Assembly (NCBI RefSeq): GCF_054482595.1 | Contig: NZ_CM137008.1 | Length of the DNA stretch: 64,000 bases | Reading direction: 5' to 3' (one strand) | Shown: piece by piece, positions 40,757-47,339 of the stretch | Position numbering within the stretch: the first letter of the stretch is position 1 | Layout of the letters: each line of letters begins with the position of its first letter | Notes under the pieces: model-generated | Told to the model about the DNA's origin: nothing | Databases searched by the model: none | What the model saw: only the letters and a program-made list of their open reading frames with translations | Position numbers and translations under genes: made by a program

Positions 40757-42070
<1,314 letters not shown>

Positions 42071-42088
42071 GACTGACTTTATCTGATT

Positions 42089-42122
42089 TAAAAATGCCAG
42101 CCTCCGGGCTGGCATTTTTTAT
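42089..42122. terminator. Bidirectional intrinsic terminator (eno on +, TPM operon on -)
   Basis: aaaaatgccagcc-tccg-ggctggcatttttt: 9-bp stem with A-run and T-run flanks. Confidence 0.75.
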
Positions 42123-42129
42123 GGTTGAG

Positions 42130-43035
42130 TTACCAGCGGCCGGATGCGCCGCCACCTCCAGAAGAACCGCCCCCGCCGCTAAATCCGCCGCCACTTGAGC
42201 CTCCACCGGAAGAGGATGAAGAAGAACCTTTTCTTGAAGCTCTTTCTTTACTGAGTTTTTTGTATTTGGCGCGTAGCTTTTTATTGACGATAAGCCAAAA
42301 AATAACCAGTGGTACGATCGCAAAAGGCGTTAACATACCGCAGGCAACGATTAAATTGGTCCATGGTCCTGGCTCGGCAACATAGAGGAATACCATCCCG
42401 TAAATGGCGCCAGTGAGAGTGATCCAGGGTAAATTCGACGGATCGGTAAAAACAATAAAATATGAAAGTACCGCCAGCAATATAATTACAGCAAGCGATA
42501 ATGGAATAGGGGGATTGATACTGTAATAATCCCCCCTGTCTTCCGGTAATTCACCATTTAACAGAAGCGCGCCGATATTTTCGCTTGCCAGTGTTAATCC
42601 ACCCATCAGGTCATCACTTTTGAAGGCAGGGATCAATATATCCCTGATAATCTTCGCCGCTTGCAGGTCGGTAACCACCCCTTCCAGCCCGTAGCCAACC
42701 TCAATACGAACAGCATGATCCTCCCAGGCAACCAGAAGTAAAATACCATCGTTTCTCTGCTTATCTCCCAGTTTCCAGCTATCAAAAACCCTTGTAGCAT
42801 ATTGTTCAATGGAATCGTCTCCGGTGGACGGCACTACTAATACAGCGACCTGCGCCCGTGTTTTATGTGTAATATCCTGCAGTTGCTGTGTCAGTGATTG
42901 TTGTTCAGAAGTGCTTAACGTACCAGTAATATCGGTCACCTGTTGGCGCAGTTCCGGCACAGCAATTTGCTGGGCAAGCCCAGGAAGACACCACAAAGTG
43001 AATAGAATAAAGATTAAGCGCATTACGATCACCAA
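42130..43035 (-). CDS. TPM-domain membrane protein (YgcG-like), paralog 3 of a tandem triplet
   Basis: 301-aa ORF: signal peptide, TPM-type region (VAVLVVPSTGDDSIEQYATRVFDSWKLG...LLLVAWEDHAVRIEVGYGLEG), hydrophobic helices, Gly/Ser tail ending SGRW; start may be the internal Met at 43023. Confidence 0.75.
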   Translation of the reverse strand: MVIVMRLIFILFTLWCLPGLAQQIAVPELRQQVTDITGTLSTSEQQSLTQQLQDITHKTRAQVAVLVVPSTGDDSIEQYATRVFDSWKLGDKQRNDGILLLVAWEDHAVRIEVGYGLEGVVTDLQAAKIIRDILIPAFKSDDLMGGLTLASENIGALLLNGELPEDRGDYYSINPPIPLSLAVIILLAVLSYFIVFTDPSNLPWITLTGAIYGMVFLYVAEPGPWTNLIVACGMLTPFAIVPLVIFWLIVNKKLRAKYKKLSKERASRKGSSSSSSGGGSSGGGFSGGGGSSGGGGASGRW

Positions 43036-44177
43036 CGGCCGGATGAACCGCCGCCTCCTGAAGAACCGCCACCACCGCGGAAAGAATTTCTCGACGAAGA
43101 GCGAGAGTGAGCATTACGATTCCCCGTTTTCCTGTTGCTTTTTTCTCCTGATCCCAGCTTAAGATTGCCAGTAAATTTGGCCACAATGATCAGCAGAACG
43201 ATGCCAGCAATGGTTATTGGACCGATAAAATGATCAATTAACCCAATAATTGTTGAGATGAATGCAATATCTTTAATACTGGCGAACACCAGGCACCATC
43301 CCACAATAATTATCAGCATCACGACAAACAATGAATTTCGTCCTGATTCACGAACCTGCGGAGTCTTCTTTTGTTTTTTCACTTTAGCGTTTTTATTTTT
43401 TGGGGCCAGCATCATAGGAAATACGCGGCACAAATTAAAAACTACCGCGAGACGCTGCTTGCAGGTTGTTGCTAACAATAAACTAAAACAAACGATCGAC
43501 ACCCGCCGAATGATGACATCGTCCTGAAAGGAGAAAAACCAGACCATAGGGGTAATCATCGATATCATCCATATGCCACGCCGTGGGCGGCTGGCAAATC
43601 GCCAGAGGACAACGATGGCAACGATCATCAGCAGTGTCCAGGCAAGACATGGCAGCGAACGTTGCGGATTAGCAAACAGATGATTGGCTAAAGCATCCAA
43701 AGGGCTAAGGTTCGCTTTGATATGGGTAAACTGTGCGATGCTTTCAATTCCGCCCGTTAATCCAGCAAAGAGATTGTTTTTTTCGAATTCTGGCTGCATA
43801 TGGTAACGAACAATTTGCGCAGCTTGTTCCGGCGGCAACATCTGTTCCAGTCCATGTCCAATCTTCATTGACGCCAGCCCTTCCGGCCATACGACGAGAA
43901 TTAAGATACCTTCGCCATATCGCTTCTCTCCAACGGGTTTCCAGTGATATACCCCGTATCTCTGCGAGGCTGCAAGTTTAATGTTTTTGCCCCCTGTGGT
44001 CGGCGTAACCAACACGGCCACCTGGAAGTGGTTTTGCTGCTCGAGAGTCTGTAATTGTTGAGTTAAAGCAGTTTGTTCTTCTGTCGTTAATGTCCCGGTT
44101 AAGTCAGTCACTGAAGGCAATCGTTCAGCGAATACCTGAAAACCGCATAGCATCAGAAGTAAGAGAAAAATACGCAT
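43029..44177 (-). CDS. TPM-domain membrane protein, divergent paralog 2
   Basis: 382-aa ORF: signal peptide, TPM-type region (VAVLVTPTTGG...ILILVVWPEG...GHGLEQ), several hydrophobic helices, Lys-rich linker, Gly/Ser tail ending SGRW. Confidence 0.7.
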   Translation of the reverse strand: MRIFLLLLMLCGFQVFAERLPSVTDLTGTLTTEEQTALTQQLQTLEQQNHFQVAVLVTPTTGGKNIKLAASQRYGVYHWKPVGEKRYGEGILILVVWPEGLASMKIGHGLEQMLPPEQAAQIVRYHMQPEFEKNNLFAGLTGGIESIAQFTHIKANLSPLDALANHLFANPQRSLPCLAWTLLMIVAIVVLWRFASRPRRGIWMISMITPMVWFFSFQDDVIIRRVSIVCFSLLLATTCKQRLAVVFNLCRVFPMMLAPKNKNAKVKKQKKTPQVRESGRNSLFVVMLIIIVGWCLVFASIKDIAFISTIIGLIDHFIGPITIAGIVLLIIVAKFTGNLKLGSGEKSNRKTGNRNAHSRSSSRNSFRGGGGSSGGGGSSGRW

Positions 44178-44191
44178 ATCAATTCCTTTTG

Positions 44192-45115
44192 TTACCAGCG
44201 CCCGGAAGCGCCACCGCCACCAGATGAACCGCCACCACCGCTAAAATTGTCATTGTCGAATGAAGAGGATGACGATGATGAATAGTGGGAGAAAGAATTG
44301 CTTCTTGTATGGCGTGATGGCTGGTTGGCATCACGCATCAAATCCCGAACTTTTTTGCCGAAGGGGGTAAAAGCGATGGCGACAGCCAGGAACGGTGTGG
44401 CGAAGCAGAGTAATGTTGTGAGTACTCCCCAGCTTCCGCTGAAACCTGCTATAGGTAAAACAAAGGCCAGTACAATAGCTGCGAAGCAAATTACTCCCAG
44501 CGTTTTGATATATCCTCTGGCAGAAATAAACGTCAGTACTATCGCCCAGGCTAACAAGGCCCACCAACCGCTAAAAGGTAAAGGGTGATCGGCCGGTGCT
44601 ATCGTCGCTAAATTATTCCCTGCCAAACGGTTTTCAATATCGCTGAGTCCCTTTTGCAAGCCGCCAGCAAGATCACCATTTTTAAATGCCGGAATAATAC
44701 TGTTGCGAATAATTTGCCCGGACTGCGCATCCGTAATAATACCTTCCAGTCCGTAACCGATTTCAATACGCACGGTATGATCCTGCCAGGCGACTAACAG
44801 TAGAACGCCATCATCGCTGTCTTTATCACCCGGTTTCCAGCTATCGAATACCCGCGTTGCGTACTGCTCGATGGTTTCATCGCCTGTTGTATCAACCACT
44901 AACACGACCAACTGTGCGTGGTTTTTTTGCGTCAGGGCTTTAATCTGGTTGGTCAGGGTGTTTACTTCGCTGTTTGTTAATGTGCCGGTTAAGTCATTCA
45001 CATACTTGGGGGATTCAGGTACTGGAATTTGTGTGGCAAACACAGATGAACAGAAGAAAGCCATAAGGAAGATAAAATTTCGCACAGAACTTCCCCGCTT
45101 AATGAGCATTAGCAT
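44192..45115 (-). CDS. TPM-domain membrane protein, paralog 1
   Basis: 307-aa ORF very similar to 42130..43035 (LVVLVVDTTGDETIEQYATRVFDSWKPG...LLLVAWQDHTVRIEIGYGLEG), Gly/Ser tail ending SGRW; start codon ambiguous among the first Mets. Confidence 0.75.
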   Translation of the reverse strand: MLMLIKRGSSVRNFIFLMAFFCSSVFATQIPVPESPKYVNDLTGTLTNSEVNTLTNQIKALTQKNHAQLVVLVVDTTGDETIEQYATRVFDSWKPGDKDSDDGVLLLVAWQDHTVRIEIGYGLEGIITDAQSGQIIRNSIIPAFKNGDLAGGLQKGLSDIENRLAGNNLATIAPADHPLPFSGWWALLAWAIVLTFISARGYIKTLGVICFAAIVLAFVLPIAGFSGSWGVLTTLLCFATPFLAVAIAFTPFGKKVRDLMRDANQPSRHTRSNSFSHYSSSSSSSFDNDNFSGGGGSSGGGGASGRW

Positions 45116-45701
45116 TCTGGCTAAAATCTATTGTTGGGGCTTTACTTACTGCGGCGACATCATCCGGTAAATAATTTTTCTTTGGCGTGTAATCCATGAC
45201 CTTTGCGGTTAATACAGCGGGGAATTTGCGGATAGTGACATTATATTGTTCAATGGCTTTAATATATCTTCCTCGCGCAACGGCAATTCTATTTTCACTT
45301 CCTTCGAGCTGTACCATTAAGTTTTGATAGAGTTCCTGAGATTTTAACTCAGGGTAACGCTCACTAATTATCGTTAACTGACCGAGAGTGCGAGTCACCT
45401 GCGCTTGAGCCTGTTGCCAGGCTTGTAATTTTTGTTCATCTCCCGGAGTTTGCTGAAGATCGCTACTGGCGCGATTAGCCTGGCTACGAGCCAATGTTAC
45501 GGCTTCCAGTACATCTCGTTCATGGCTGGAATAACCTTTAATGCTGGCGACAAGATTAGGAATAAGATCGGCGCGACGTTGATATTGATTCAATACCTCA
45601 GACCAGGAGGCGTTAACCTGCTCATCATAGGTTTGAATATCGTTATATCCACAGCCTGATAAATTGAAAATAAATATAATTACGATGAATATTCTGAGCA
45701 T
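45099..45701 (-). CDS. LemA-family protein (predicted lipoprotein)
   Basis: 200-aa ORF; N-terminal hydrophobic segment with lipobox LSGC; LemA-like helical region; first gene of the operon. Confidence 0.75.
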   Translation of the reverse strand: MLRIFIVIIFIFNLSGCGYNDIQTYDEQVNASWSEVLNQYQRRADLIPNLVASIKGYSSHERDVLEAVTLARSQANRASSDLQQTPGDEQKLQAWQQAQAQVTRTLGQLTIISERYPELKSQELYQNLMVQLEGSENRIAVARGRYIKAIEQYNVTIRKFPAVLTAKVMDYTPKKNYLPDDVAAVSKAPTIDFSQNANAH

Positions 45702-45873
45702 GTTTAAATCCCTTTTAATTAATTCCTTAAAACATAATACTCTGCTTCATTTTATTCTTTATGATCTAATCCACTTTTTGCCATAAACCTGCCTGTAACA
45801 GAATGTTAATAAGACATGATTGTTGTGGCAGGATCTGCAATAATTAACAATTATCCACTTCACAGAGAATGCT

Positions 45874-46545
45874 ATGCAGTACCCGATTAACGAGATGTTC
45901 CAGACCCTGCAAGGTGAGGGTTACTTTACCGGCGTCCCCGCCATTTTTATTCGTTTACAGGGATGCCCGGTTGGCTGTGCCTGGTGCGACACCAAACACA
46001 CCTGGGAAAAGCTTGAGGATCGGGAAGTCTCCCTTTTCAGCATTCTGGCGAAGACCAAAGAGAGTGATAAGTGGGGGGCGGCGAGCAGTGAAGACTTGCT
46101 GGCTGTCATTGGTCGCCAGGGATATACCGCGCGGCATGTGGTGATTACGGGTGGTGAGCCTTGCATTCATGATTTGCTGCCACTGACTGACCTGCTCGAA
46201 AAGAACGGTTTTAGCTGCCAGATCGAAACCAGTGGTACTCATGAGGTACGCTGCACACCGAATACCTGGGTTACCGTATCGCCAAAGCTGAACATGCGCG
46301 GCGGCTATGAAGTGTTGTCACAGGCACTGGAGCGAGCCAACGAAATCAAGCATCCAGTGGGGCGCGTACGTGATATTGAAGCACTGGATGAACTTTTGGC
46401 GACGCTGACCGATGATAAACCGCGAGTCATTGCACTGCAGCCGATTAGCCAAAAGGATGATGCCACACGTTTGTGCATTGAAACCTGCATTGCGCGTAAT
46501 TGGCGTTTGTCGATGCAAACCCATAAATATTTAAATATTGCCTGA
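45874..46545 (+). CDS. queE: 7-carboxy-7-deazaguanine synthase (radical SAM)
   Basis: 223-aa ORF MQYPINEMFQTLQGEGYFTGVPAIFIRLQGCPVGCAWCDTK (CxxxCxxC variant cluster). Confidence 0.9.
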   Translation: MQYPINEMFQTLQGEGYFTGVPAIFIRLQGCPVGCAWCDTKHTWEKLEDREVSLFSILAKTKESDKWGAASSEDLLAVIGRQGYTARHVVITGGEPCIHDLLPLTDLLEKNGFSCQIETSGTHEVRCTPNTWVTVSPKLNMRGGYEVLSQALERANEIKHPVGRVRDIEALDELLATLTDDKPRVIALQPISQKDDATRLCIETCIARNWRLSMQTHKYLNIA

Positions 46546-46699
46546 TTAAACATTTATAAGCGTTATAAATGGGTGGAACCTGTAAAGACTTCTACTCATT
46601 TATATTCTTTGTCGTCTCTGAAAAACCTCCATTTTGCCCATCCTGAACTAATCATTATCATTCTCTACAAATTCTGTGGCGTTAATTTTTCGCTGGAGT

Positions 46700-46883
46700 G
46701 AAAATTATTGCGGTAAAGTTTGGTAGATTTTAGTTTGTATAGAGTTATTTTAAATATTTACCTTTTTAATCAATTGGTTAAGTGCTCTTTAACATAATGG
46801 ATGTGTTGTTTGTGTGATACTGTAAAGTTGGTAGATTGTGACTGGCTTAAAAAATCATTAATTAATAATAGGTTATGTTTAGA
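46700..46883 (+). promoter_or_regulatory. CRISPR leader (AT-rich), ending ...aataataggttatgtttaga before the first repeat
   Basis: AT-rich non-coding sequence directly upstream of repeat 1; the degenerate repeat lies at the opposite end of the array. Confidence 0.7.
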
Positions 46884-47339
46884 GAGTTCCCCGCGCCAGC
46901 GGGGATAAACCGGCCTGGCGATTTCTCGTCAGGCCTTGCGGTGTGAGTTCCCCGCGCCAGCGGGGATAAACCGTCAGTAAAGCGGCGCCCACTGATATCG
47001 GATTAGAGTTCCCCGCGCCAGCGGGGATAAACCGAGGGGCAGGGAGTGACGCTGGAGCAGGCGATCGAGTTCCCCGCGCCAGCGGGGATAAACCGGGAAA
47101 TTAGGCAAATGTGAACACGGCGGCCCCGAGTTCCCCGCGCCAGCGGGGATAAACCGCCAGTATTTTGTCGTGGATTGCGGGATCACCAGAGTTCCCCGCG
47201 CCAGCGGGGATAAACCGTTGAGTTTGTTCGTAACAACGCGGGTCATCTGGAGTTCCCCGCGGCAGCGGGGATAAACCGGGTACAAAAGAGGCCCCATTCT
47301 GGCAGGGCTCAAGTTCCCCGCGCCAGTGGGGATAAACCA
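46884..47339 (+). CRISPR. Type I-E CRISPR array: 8 repeats of 29 nt, 7 spacers of 32 nt, no adjacent cas genes
   Basis: Repeat GAGTTCCCCGCGCCAGCGGGGATAAACCG at 46884, 46945, 47006, 47067, 47128, 47189, 47250 (one C-to-G variant) and degenerate terminal repeat aagttccccgcgccagtggggataaacca at 47311; exact 61-nt period. Confidence 0.95.

Follow-up and report, generated by a model that had tools for sequence, protein, structure and literature searches.

The interval between eno and queE in Escherichia coli raises the question of what is encoded by a compact group of four genes, one for a LemA-family protein and three for TPM-domain proteins that share the same C-terminal peptide, and of how this group came to occupy its place. 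The group has been analysed in a 64,000-nucleotide stretch of contig NZ_CM137008.1 (RefSeq assembly GCF_054482595.1), referred to here as the window. Between the two flanking genes, the window is 100% identical to E. coli XH990, from which the gene starts assigned by the Prokaryotic Genome Annotation Pipeline (PGAP) were taken. The group is near-certainly a LemA–YgcG/TPM operon. It is an already annotated member of a functionally dark family in an unusual three-paralog configuration; RefSeq names its genes 'LemA family protein' and 'TPM domain-containing / YgcG family protein'. The only surprising elements are the inferred coupling of the C-terminal tails to the TPM domains and the clash of this coupling with the predicted membrane topology. 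The identity of the operon and the mechanism proposed below, taken together as the best explanation of the locus, are assigned a probability of roughly 55%.

All four genes are encoded on the minus strand. The gene lemA (45099..45701) specifies a 200-residue predicted lipoprotein with a signal peptide and the lipobox NLSG|C, in which Cys17 is followed by GYN. TPM-1 (44192..45085) is 297 residues long from the GTG at 45085, and its open reading frame (ORF; 44192-45115) reaches back to an ATG at 45115. It consists of a signal peptide, a TPM domain, three hydrophobic helices, a basic stretch, a Ser-rich linker, and the tail FSGGGGSSGGGGASGRW. TPM-2 (43029..44177, 382 residues) is a divergent paralog with the tail FRGGGGSSGGGGSSGRW. 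TPM-3 (42130..43032) has the canonical architecture and 300 residues from the PGAP start, a GTG at 43032, in an ORF spanning 42130-43035; it occupies the position that ygcG holds in strain K-12. With the PGAP starts, lemA and TPM-1 are separated by 13 nucleotides and TPM-1 and TPM-2 by 14, and TPM-2 and TPM-3 overlap by four. The four ORFs and their abutting or overlapping arrangement agree with the initial annotation of the window.

The product of lemA matches Pfam PF04011 along the entire model (positions 1-149 of 149, E = 5.6e-48) and the LemA structure 2ETD in the PDB (E = 7.7e-32). Its predicted N-terminal anchor, the lipobox NLSG|CGYN, was read in the sequence, and the motif LSGCGYN is also present in at least 41 of 67 LemA neighbours from other taxa. 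The Pfam TPM_phosphatase model (PF04536) is covered from position 1 to 124 of 125 by each of TPM-1, TPM-2, and TPM-3, with E-values of 5.6e-41, 3.7e-21, and 3.9e-38, respectively. An AlphaFold model of TPM-1 has a mean predicted local distance difference test score (pLDDT) of 79.6, which exceeds 93 within the TPM domain. Foldseek, applied to the TPM-1 model only, retrieves 5ANP, 7TBR, 2KW7, 3PVH, and 4OA3 with target-normalised template modelling scores (TM-scores) of 0.75–0.90. The family assignments of the initial annotation are thus borne out by profile, PDB-sequence, and fold matches, and the signal peptide, TPM domain, hydrophobic helices, basic stretch, and Gly/Ser tail that it listed were all read in each TPM protein. 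The proteins have the YgcG-type architecture of a signal peptide, a TPM domain, about three transmembrane helices, and a tail of the form ...GGGGxxGGGGASGxW, of which TPM-2 is a variant. Solved relatives (BA41, BA42, Rhom172_1776, PG0361, TLP18.3, and Psb32) comprise TPM domains only. Weak matches of the tails to the Pfam 'YxzE-like bacteriocin' family (E about 1e-4) were judged compositional. The TPM-1 model also matches a subunit of about 145 residues from the mycobacterial CIII2CIV2 supercomplex (6ADQ_J, 8HCR_J, 8OVC_V, and 6HWH_O; target-normalised TM-scores 0.62–0.69). This chain, matched by fold only, would be a further example of a TPM-like fold in an accessory role within a membrane complex.

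A profile of the three paralogs identifies 26,319 cluster representatives (50% identity) at E ≤ 1e-3, and more than 2,300 similar models were found in the AlphaFold database by Foldseek, under the names YgcG family, TPM domain, 'glycine rich transmembrane protein', and the legacy 'beta-propeller domains of methanol dehydrogenase type'. Eighty loci from many phyla were drawn via the family alignment, and 79 of them gave hits. In 67 of those with hits, LemA adjoins a tailed TPM gene, in accordance with the earlier statement that LemA/TPM pairs are widespread. With T for tailed TPM genes and t for short ones that lack the tail, LemA-T (42 loci) and LemA-T-t (8 loci) are the orders seen most often. 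Clustering of neighbouring genes places t-type genes in 18 further loci, downstream of the T gene in 16 of them, and this second, tail-less TPM gene is the only other operon neighbour that recurs in the 80 loci. The t proteins are 143–185 residues long, lack a signal peptide, and often end in NELPD (L008, L016, L021, L024, L037, and others). Some of them have an N-terminal transmembrane helix followed by a basic stretch. Since they lack signal peptides, the t proteins are expected to be cytoplasmic, and canonical operons would therefore provide TPM domains on both sides of the membrane. LemA is anchored by the lipobox LSGCGYN in most Proteobacteria and by an N-terminal transmembrane helix elsewhere. 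Two tailed TPM genes are present in four of the 79 loci, and three in none. Escherichia has three T genes and lacks t, so its operon is an unusual form of a known but uncharacterised type.

The three TPM proteins of the window end in F[SR]GGGGSSGGGG[AS]SGRW, which includes the identical SGRW terminus noticed at the outset. This terminus is not special to the three paralogs: the YgcG protein of K-12 also has the tail, and the ending ...ASG[SRGN]W-COOH is family-wide. The C-terminal residue is tryptophan in 103 of 120 close homologues and in 132 of 143 diverse representatives, and the family consensus is [FY]SGGGGS[FS]GGGGASG[SRGNK]W. The tail is therefore a hallmark of the family rather than a feature of the three paralogs. 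A Gly-rich extension has been noted in non-photosynthetic homologues of Psb32 (10.1101/2025.05.08.652833). None of the chains in the PDB contains the tail motif, so no solved structure can confirm its docking. A TPM-2-like protein from Klebsiella sp. (L090 5911-6696, 261 residues) has a signal peptide, a transmembrane region, the exact tail GGGGSSGGGGASGRW, and almost no TPM domain. The TPM-1 orthologues of E. albertii (P0021-P0025, 293 residues) carry a natural shortened variant, in which the tail is reduced by one GGGG block (...FDNDHFSGGGASGRW). In C-terminal sorting signals, a motif precedes a transmembrane helix, and a basic cluster forms the very end of the protein. The TPM proteins have the order transmembrane helices, basic cluster, Ser/Gly linker, motif, and W-COOH, and do not fit a pattern of the LPXTG, PEP-CTERM, or GlyGly-CTERM type. 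A signal for a shared partner or for sorting, as proposed initially, is still conceivable, but the AlphaFold and covariation results described below point to the TPM domain itself as the partner of the tail.

TPM-1 and TPM-3 had been described as near-duplicates; however, they share only 44–46% of their residues. The divergence ascribed to TPM-2 is real, as it is 31–39% identical to the other two. The K-12 protein YgcG is 42% identical to TPM-3 and 35% to TPM-1. Identities of 31–44% indicate that the three paralogs diverged long ago. Of 35 family-conserved positions in the TPM domain, which include D31, E73, D102, R106, E108, Y111, E114, and D119, TPM-1 keeps 31 and TPM-3 keeps 32, and YgcG falls within 31–32; TPM-2 keeps 22. 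The substitutions in TPM-2 include R106S, E108K, Y111H, D119P, and E73K, and hydropathy together with a split alignment to TPM-1 reveals an insert of about 95 residues, in which a strongly basic loop accompanies two additional hydrophobic segments. TPM-2 is probably a degenerate, non-catalytic, scaffold-like subunit.

The tails are encoded at the 3' ends of the genes in blocks of 17 codons and a stop codon on the minus strand (TPM-1, 44192..44245; TPM-2, 43029..43082; TPM-3, 42130..42183), the first of which matches the second. Over 51 nucleotides, the blocks of the three genes are 78–84% identical, compared to 24–27% in the 51 nucleotides just before them. Within the blocks, 8 of 8, 8 of 10, and 7 of 9 codon differences are synonymous. 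The similarity has therefore been kept by selection on the peptide, and recent duplication or gene conversion as its source is ruled out. The common block of about 45 nucleotides reported initially is thus present, but it is not a trace of recent duplication.

Structure prediction for TPM-1 and an analysis of hydropathy and charge in the family, in line with checks recommended in the initial annotation, gave a domain-dependent tail strand on the one hand and a charge bias that places the C-terminus inside the cell on the other. AlphaFold2 was applied to TPM-1 with an alignment of 51 sequences, and again to residues 160–297, from which the TPM domain is removed. The full-length model contains hydrophobic helices 174-191, 196-214, and 218-239 and a disordered Ser-rich linker (254-280) with pLDDT below 50. 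The last seven residues have a pLDDT of 93 and include a β-strand (292-296). When the TPM domain is deleted, the pLDDT of the tail falls below 50 and the strand is lost. Therefore, the confident placement of the tail depends on the TPM domain.

Covariation between tail and domain was determined in a non-redundant set (<80% identity) of 175 homologues that bear the tail. The residue at tail −10 is F or S. Residue 80 lies in helix 72-83, as the third position of the motif RV[F/A/V][D/E], and is F or one of A, V, and G. F80 is combined with a non-F tail in 93 proteins, and a non-F residue 80 with an F tail in 74; eight proteins have F at neither position and none at both. The mutual information of the two columns is 0.73 nats, compared to a median of 0.08, and the next-best columns, 77 and 76, lie on the same face of the helix. 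Positive charge is exchanged in a similar manner between tail position −2 and residue 104: it is found in the domain in 99 proteins, in the tail in 47, in neither in 28, and in both in one (z-score 13.9; the next column reaches 4.9). Parsimony on a neighbour-joining tree from which these columns were left out gives about 19 changes for each character. Among the closest sister pairs that differ at tail −10, 55 of 60 also differ at residue 80, the highest fraction for any column; five E. albertii pairs, in which the shortened tail shifts the register, were left out of this test. The number of changes and the sister-pair contrasts together indicate repeated independent swaps. A contact between residues 296 and 104 is consistent with a tail strand that runs antiparallel to strand 104-109, and both covariation rules are obeyed by all four E. 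coli proteins, the three TPM proteins and YgcG. The domain-dependent placement and the covariation argue that the tail packs on the TPM domain and would be a latch rather than a sorting signal.

Several observations weigh against such a latch. The truncated AlphaFold control was computed with 33 sequences instead of 51, and the putative tail contact was deduced from pLDDT and secondary structure only. The TPM proteins have canonical cleavable signal peptides, and three hydrophobic segments are the mode of the family. In 89 three-segment members, the charge bias is of the classical kind: the values of K+R and D+E are 1.4 and 2.3 ahead of the first transmembrane segment (TM1), 2.5 and 0.25 for loop 1, 0.36 and 0.58 for loop 2, and 2.2 and 0.67 behind TM3. 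Hydropathy and charge bias thus place the TPM domain in the periplasm and the tail in the cytoplasm, in conflict with a latch formed in cis. Furthermore, the last hydrophobic stretch of some homologues is followed by just 24–28 residues, too short a segment to reach back across the membrane. The conflict may be explained if the hydrophobic region crosses the membrane an even number of times, if the contact is formed in another state or between subunits, or if the covariation has a cause other than contact. The tailed Klebsiella protein that lacks a TPM domain hints that tails can act between subunits.

The same topology would be expected if the tail were a docking or turnover signal for a shared cytoplasmic partner and its docking by AlphaFold an artefact. 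A protease or an adaptor would be candidates for this partner, as would the t protein encoded in the operons of other species; this reading is close to the initial proposal of a shared partner. The positive-inside charge bias, the invariant tryptophan at the extreme C-terminus, the presence in canonical operons of a cytoplasmic TPM domain without a signal peptide, and the retention of the tail by a Klebsiella protein without its own TPM domain all agree with a signal of this kind. However, the near-perfect covariation of the tail with residues 80, 76, 77, and 104 of its own protein in many lineages is hard to reconcile with an unrelated partner, and a t gene is missing from the operon of E. 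coli; this explanation is rather unlikely. It is possible, albeit doubtful, that the tail truly binds the extracytoplasmic TPM domain, and that either the topology with three transmembrane helices and a cytoplasmic C-terminus is wrong, because of an even number of crossings or a monotopic hairpin, or the Ser/Gly linker passes through an oligomeric pore. If so, a family of more than 26,000 clusters at 50% identity would represent a tail-latched, possibly gated membrane device, and the E. coli paralogs and the domain-less tailed relative from Klebsiella would exchange tails between subunits.

The distribution of the operon was determined in 5426 complete E. coli genomes, with the four-gene interval counted at a coverage of at least 80%. 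The interval is present in 1102 genomes (20%), lemA in 1454 (27%), TPM-1 in 1451 (27%), and TPM-2 in 1102–1104 (20%). The K-12-type pair of yqcG and ygcG is present in 3929 genomes (72%). About 350 genomes (6%) contain lemA and a divergent TPM-1 (about 80% nucleotide identity), followed by a gene for an unrelated 120-residue membrane protein. This predicted membrane protein (L004 2603-2965) adjoins eno, and a homologous 130-residue gene occupies the same position in the Klebsiella operon (L090 6721-7113). Carriers of the four genes include O157:H7 Sakai (ECs_3634-3638), the uropathogenic strain 536, and the type strain ATCC 11775. The interval is thus variable among strains, as the initial annotation had anticipated, and K-12 differs from the window in having a single ygcG at the site, as that annotation had correctly stated.

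By contrast, the view that the genes were inserted as a cassette and multiplied by successive duplications is not compatible with the comparison of species. E. albertii has the identical order queE-lemA-TPM1-TPM2-TPM3-eno, with amino-acid identities of 96, 87, 79, and 90% for the four proteins, and a Klebsiella contig contains lemA and a TPM-1-like gene at the same site. K-12 and the window are collinear only at the ends of the interval. On the eno side, the similarity comprises the spacer and the last 82 nucleotides of the TPM gene (97% identity; 42071-42211 of the window, which includes the TPM-3 tail block, against the 3' end of ygcG and the downstream spacer). On the queE side, the 5' end of lemA and the promoter region are 84% identical over 207 nucleotides to K-12 DNA that underlies the 5' part of yqcG. 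The hydrophobic core KIIFIFSVL of yqcG, a gene of 46 codons, resembles the LemA signal peptide VIIFIFNLSG, and yqcG of K-12 is built on a remnant of the 5' end of lemA. Because E. albertii has the same layout and yqcG overlies this remnant, the four-gene state is ancestral and that of K-12 reduced. The operon thus sits at its ancestral chromosomal site between queE and eno. An origin from a mobile element is ruled out by the fixed position, by the occurrence at the same site in E. albertii and Klebsiella, and by the lack of plasmid copies of the operon among the 5426 genomes.

The genes of the interval are more variable than their surroundings: identity between strains is 79–99% for the interval genes, 99.3–99.8% for eno, and 97.7–99.6% for queE. 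The interval is a mosaic of deep alleles. The third gene of strain GABEEC10 (L086 358-1230) is TPM-3-like in its first approximately 75 residues and YgcG-like thereafter, with a breakpoint near the conserved IEQYATRVFD block; this chimera shows that TPM-3 and YgcG are allelic forms of the gene at a single position. In RV06, a culture mutant of O157:H7 (L003 2971-3018), TPM-2 is missing, and the junction lies inside a 48-nucleotide tail block common to TPM-1 and TPM-2. Therefore, the DNA encoding the tails mediates changes in copy number by homologous recombination. In some E. coli strains, IS1 or IS4 is inserted in the K-12-type ygcG (matches H15, H65, and H71). Mosaic alleles, chimeras, and changes in copy number, together with an array of clustered regularly interspaced short palindromic repeats (CRISPR) 1.2 kb away, could be read as the mark of an arms race in which the operon serves as an anti-phage or conflict system. 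However, none of the four proteins has a hit in PADLOC-DB 2.0 at E ≤ 0.1, and the operon is chromosomal, fixed in position, never found on plasmids, distributed from Firmicutes to Proteobacteria, and under purifying selection. Moreover, no CRISPR array is called between queE and ygcE, some 400 bp apart, in E. albertii (L088), which has the operon at this site. A role in defence is very unlikely.

The four ORFs of the window are intact, and each TPM frame reads through to the tail. The ratios of nonsynonymous to synonymous substitution rates (dN/dS), computed against three other haplotypes, are 0.04–0.09 for lemA, 0.15–0.25 for TPM-1, 0.05–0.06 for TPM-3, and 0.35–0.54 for TPM-2, the most relaxed of the four. 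Because the ORFs are intact and dN/dS lies between 0.04 and 0.54, the four genes appear to be functional. They could instead be idle relics heading for the loss seen in K-12, given that 72% of strains have lost lemA, TPM-1, and TPM-2 and that PGAP flags TPM-1 as a pseudogene in XH990, the strain with the identical interval. However, dN/dS is well below 1, the layout has been kept since before E. coli and E. albertii separated, and the flag does not withstand inspection. PGAP calls TPM-1 'incomplete, missing C-terminus' in XH990, GABEEC10, and EC0885 (L001 5844-6515, L086 2636-3307, and L004 3235-3906), but the frame reads to the tail in all three, and an intact 297-residue orthologue is annotated in FDAARGOS_1292. 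The flag is likely an annotation artefact, and a truncated 224-residue protein from O157:H7 is possibly the evidence behind it. In O157:H7 Sakai, TPM-1 (L085 4322-4996) has a nonsense codon at position 225 and no indel, and its protein therefore loses TM3 and the tail. The lemA gene of Sakai (L085 5010-5504) is annotated as a pseudogene, although its ORF reads through in the frame of the window. The Sakai nonsense codon and pseudogene annotation agree with decay, but for the window strain decay is highly improbable.

How the operon may function is suggested by TPM proteins studied elsewhere. TPM proteins of known mechanism are extracytoplasmic accessory or assembly subunits of membrane complexes. 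In a cryo-electron microscopy structure, Psb32 is bound to photosystem II (PSII), with a lumenal TPM domain and a transmembrane helix beside cytochrome b559 (10.1101/2025.05.08.652833). By analogy, LemA, as a helical bundle with a lipid anchor, would join the TPM domains in the periplasm in a membrane-attached hetero-oligomer, in which the TPM proteins would be anchored by three helices, or by five in TPM-2. When the cell is under stress of the stationary-phase, envelope, or PhoP type, the complex may assist envelope or membrane complexes as an accessory factor or help to assemble or repair them. TPM-1 and TPM-3, which keep the conserved residues of the TPM site, would be joined by TPM-2 as a probable scaffold. 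The C-terminal peptide would be a family-wide latch on strand 104-109 and the 76/77/80 face of helix 72-83, and would gate or stabilise the TPM domain in cis or between subunits.

The link to stress is provided by the K-12 spacer homologous to the control region of the operon, which contains a sigma-S peak in chromatin immunoprecipitation sequencing and in systematic evolution of ligands by exponential enrichment (PMC4447067, PMC5493296). The homologous region also binds phospho-PhoP, and deletion of yqcG raises queE expression (PMC4974570). PGAP names the K-12 YqcG a cell-envelope stress-response protein. Regulation by sigma-S and PhoP may carry over from K-12 to the window strain, and the operon may thus be a stress-linked envelope module.

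Four considerations limit the confidence in this function. Literature searches on LemA with TPM, ygcG, and yqcG found no paper or experiment on the operon and yielded only regulation data for K-12 and preprints on Psb32 and LMTP1, in line with the earlier remark that LemA/TPM pairs have no established function. The suggested role in assembly or repair is drawn from analogy only. The nonsense codon in TPM-1 of O157:H7 implies that the full gene set is dispensable in at least that lineage. Finally, weak phosphatase and ATPase activities in vitro leave an enzymatic role equally open. Such activities, together with metal sites, have been reported for BA41, BA42, and TLP18.3 in work cited in 10.1101/2024.10.28.620569 and 10.1101/2025.05.08.652833. 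The TPM domains could accordingly be metal-dependent enzymes of the periplasm, phosphatases or nucleotidases, whose substrate is a small molecule or a phosphoprotein; LemA would be an accessory, and the paralogs would differ in substrate. The retention of the conserved residues D31, E73, D102, R106, E108, E114, and D119 in TPM-1 and TPM-3 speaks for such a role. However, the reported activities are weak, and there is no consensus function for the TPM domain according to the authors of 10.1101/2024.10.28.620569. TPM-2 has lost the conserved residues yet is under purifying selection, and in the one structure considered of a TPM protein at work, Psb32 acts on PSII as a binding or assembly subunit. 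A hydrolase function is unlikely.

The operon is flanked by eno (40772-42070, plus strand), which converges with TPM-3, and by queE (45874-46545, plus strand, 672 bp), which diverges from lemA. The divergent control region between lemA and queE (45702..45873, 172 bp) is 84% identical to the 5' end of yqcG and the upstream region of queE in K-12. A GC-rich hairpin, TGCCAGCC-CGGA-GGCTGGCA, flanked by an A-run and a T-run, was read from the sequence between the convergent stop codons of eno and TPM-3 (42087..42120), and is a probable bidirectional terminator. A scan for consensus promoters and terminators gave nothing above the shuffled background and missed this hairpin. The GC content of the interval is 0.41–0.50, compared to 0.50–0.53 in eno and pyrG, with a minimum of 0.40–0.43 over lemA and the promoter. 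The type I-E CRISPR array (46884-47339, plus strand) has eight repeats (GAGTTCCCCGCGCCAGCGGGGATAAACCG), of which the last two are degenerate; the leader (46546-46883) is therefore on the queE side, where it adjoins queE. The operon was initially placed beside this leader, which is loosely correct, but queE separates the two. The proximity of the array is taken as coincidental.

LemA and YgcG-type TPM proteins form a large conserved operon family without known function that extends from Firmicutes to Proteobacteria and includes relatives that are PSII assembly factors. E. coli provides a natural allelic series at one locus, with four genes, with lemA and one TPM gene, or with ygcG and a lemA remnant, and since the series occurs in tractable strains, the function is directly testable. 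The covariation offers a falsifiable structural hypothesis that names specific residues, 80 with tail −10 and 104 with tail −2. Two annotations are corrected: TPM-1 is intact despite its pseudogene flag in several RefSeq genomes, and yqcG of K-12 is a relic of lemA.

The operon may be compared with several known systems. The locus of O157:H7 Sakai (ECs_3634-ECs_3638) is the same four-gene locus with 96.5–99% nucleotide identity; it differs in the nonsense codon of TPM-1 and the pseudogene annotation of lemA, whereas the window copy is intact. The ygcG-yqcG locus of K-12 occupies the same slot between the same flanks, with a terminator region that is 97% identical over 141 nucleotides and a promoter region that is 84% identical, and its YgcG is built in the same way, down to an identical ...GGFSGGGGSSGGGGASGRW tail. 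By contrast, it lacks TPM-1 and TPM-2, and retains of lemA only the 5' remnant in yqcG. MamQ shares the LemA domain, and the NCBIfam MamQ equivalog model (NF040966) aligns over residues 6-192 of the LemA product. However, the score of 89.9 bits is below the cut-off of 250, so the protein is not an equivalog, and there is no magnetosome context. Psb32/TLP18.3 resembles the TPM proteins in its extracytoplasmic, lumenal TPM domain tethered by one or more C-terminal transmembrane helices and in its fold (3PVH, 8C7I). Unlike them, Psb32 has one transmembrane helix, no Gly-rich tail, and no LemA partner, and its client PSII is absent from E. coli; the Psb32 equivalog model (NF047379) gives 34.5 and 31.1 bits against a cut-off of 160, and no hit for TPM-2. 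BA41 and BA42 of Bizionia argentinensis are members of the two TPM types, and the TPM-1 model fits BA41 (5ANP) with a target-normalised TM-score of 0.89. Their genes presumably adjoin a lemA gene. The canonical LemA-T-t operon differs from that of E. coli, which has three tailed paralogs and no t gene; the two have in common the order of LemA followed by a tailed TPM gene, a LemA anchored by a lipobox or transmembrane helix, and the same architecture of the TPM proteins.

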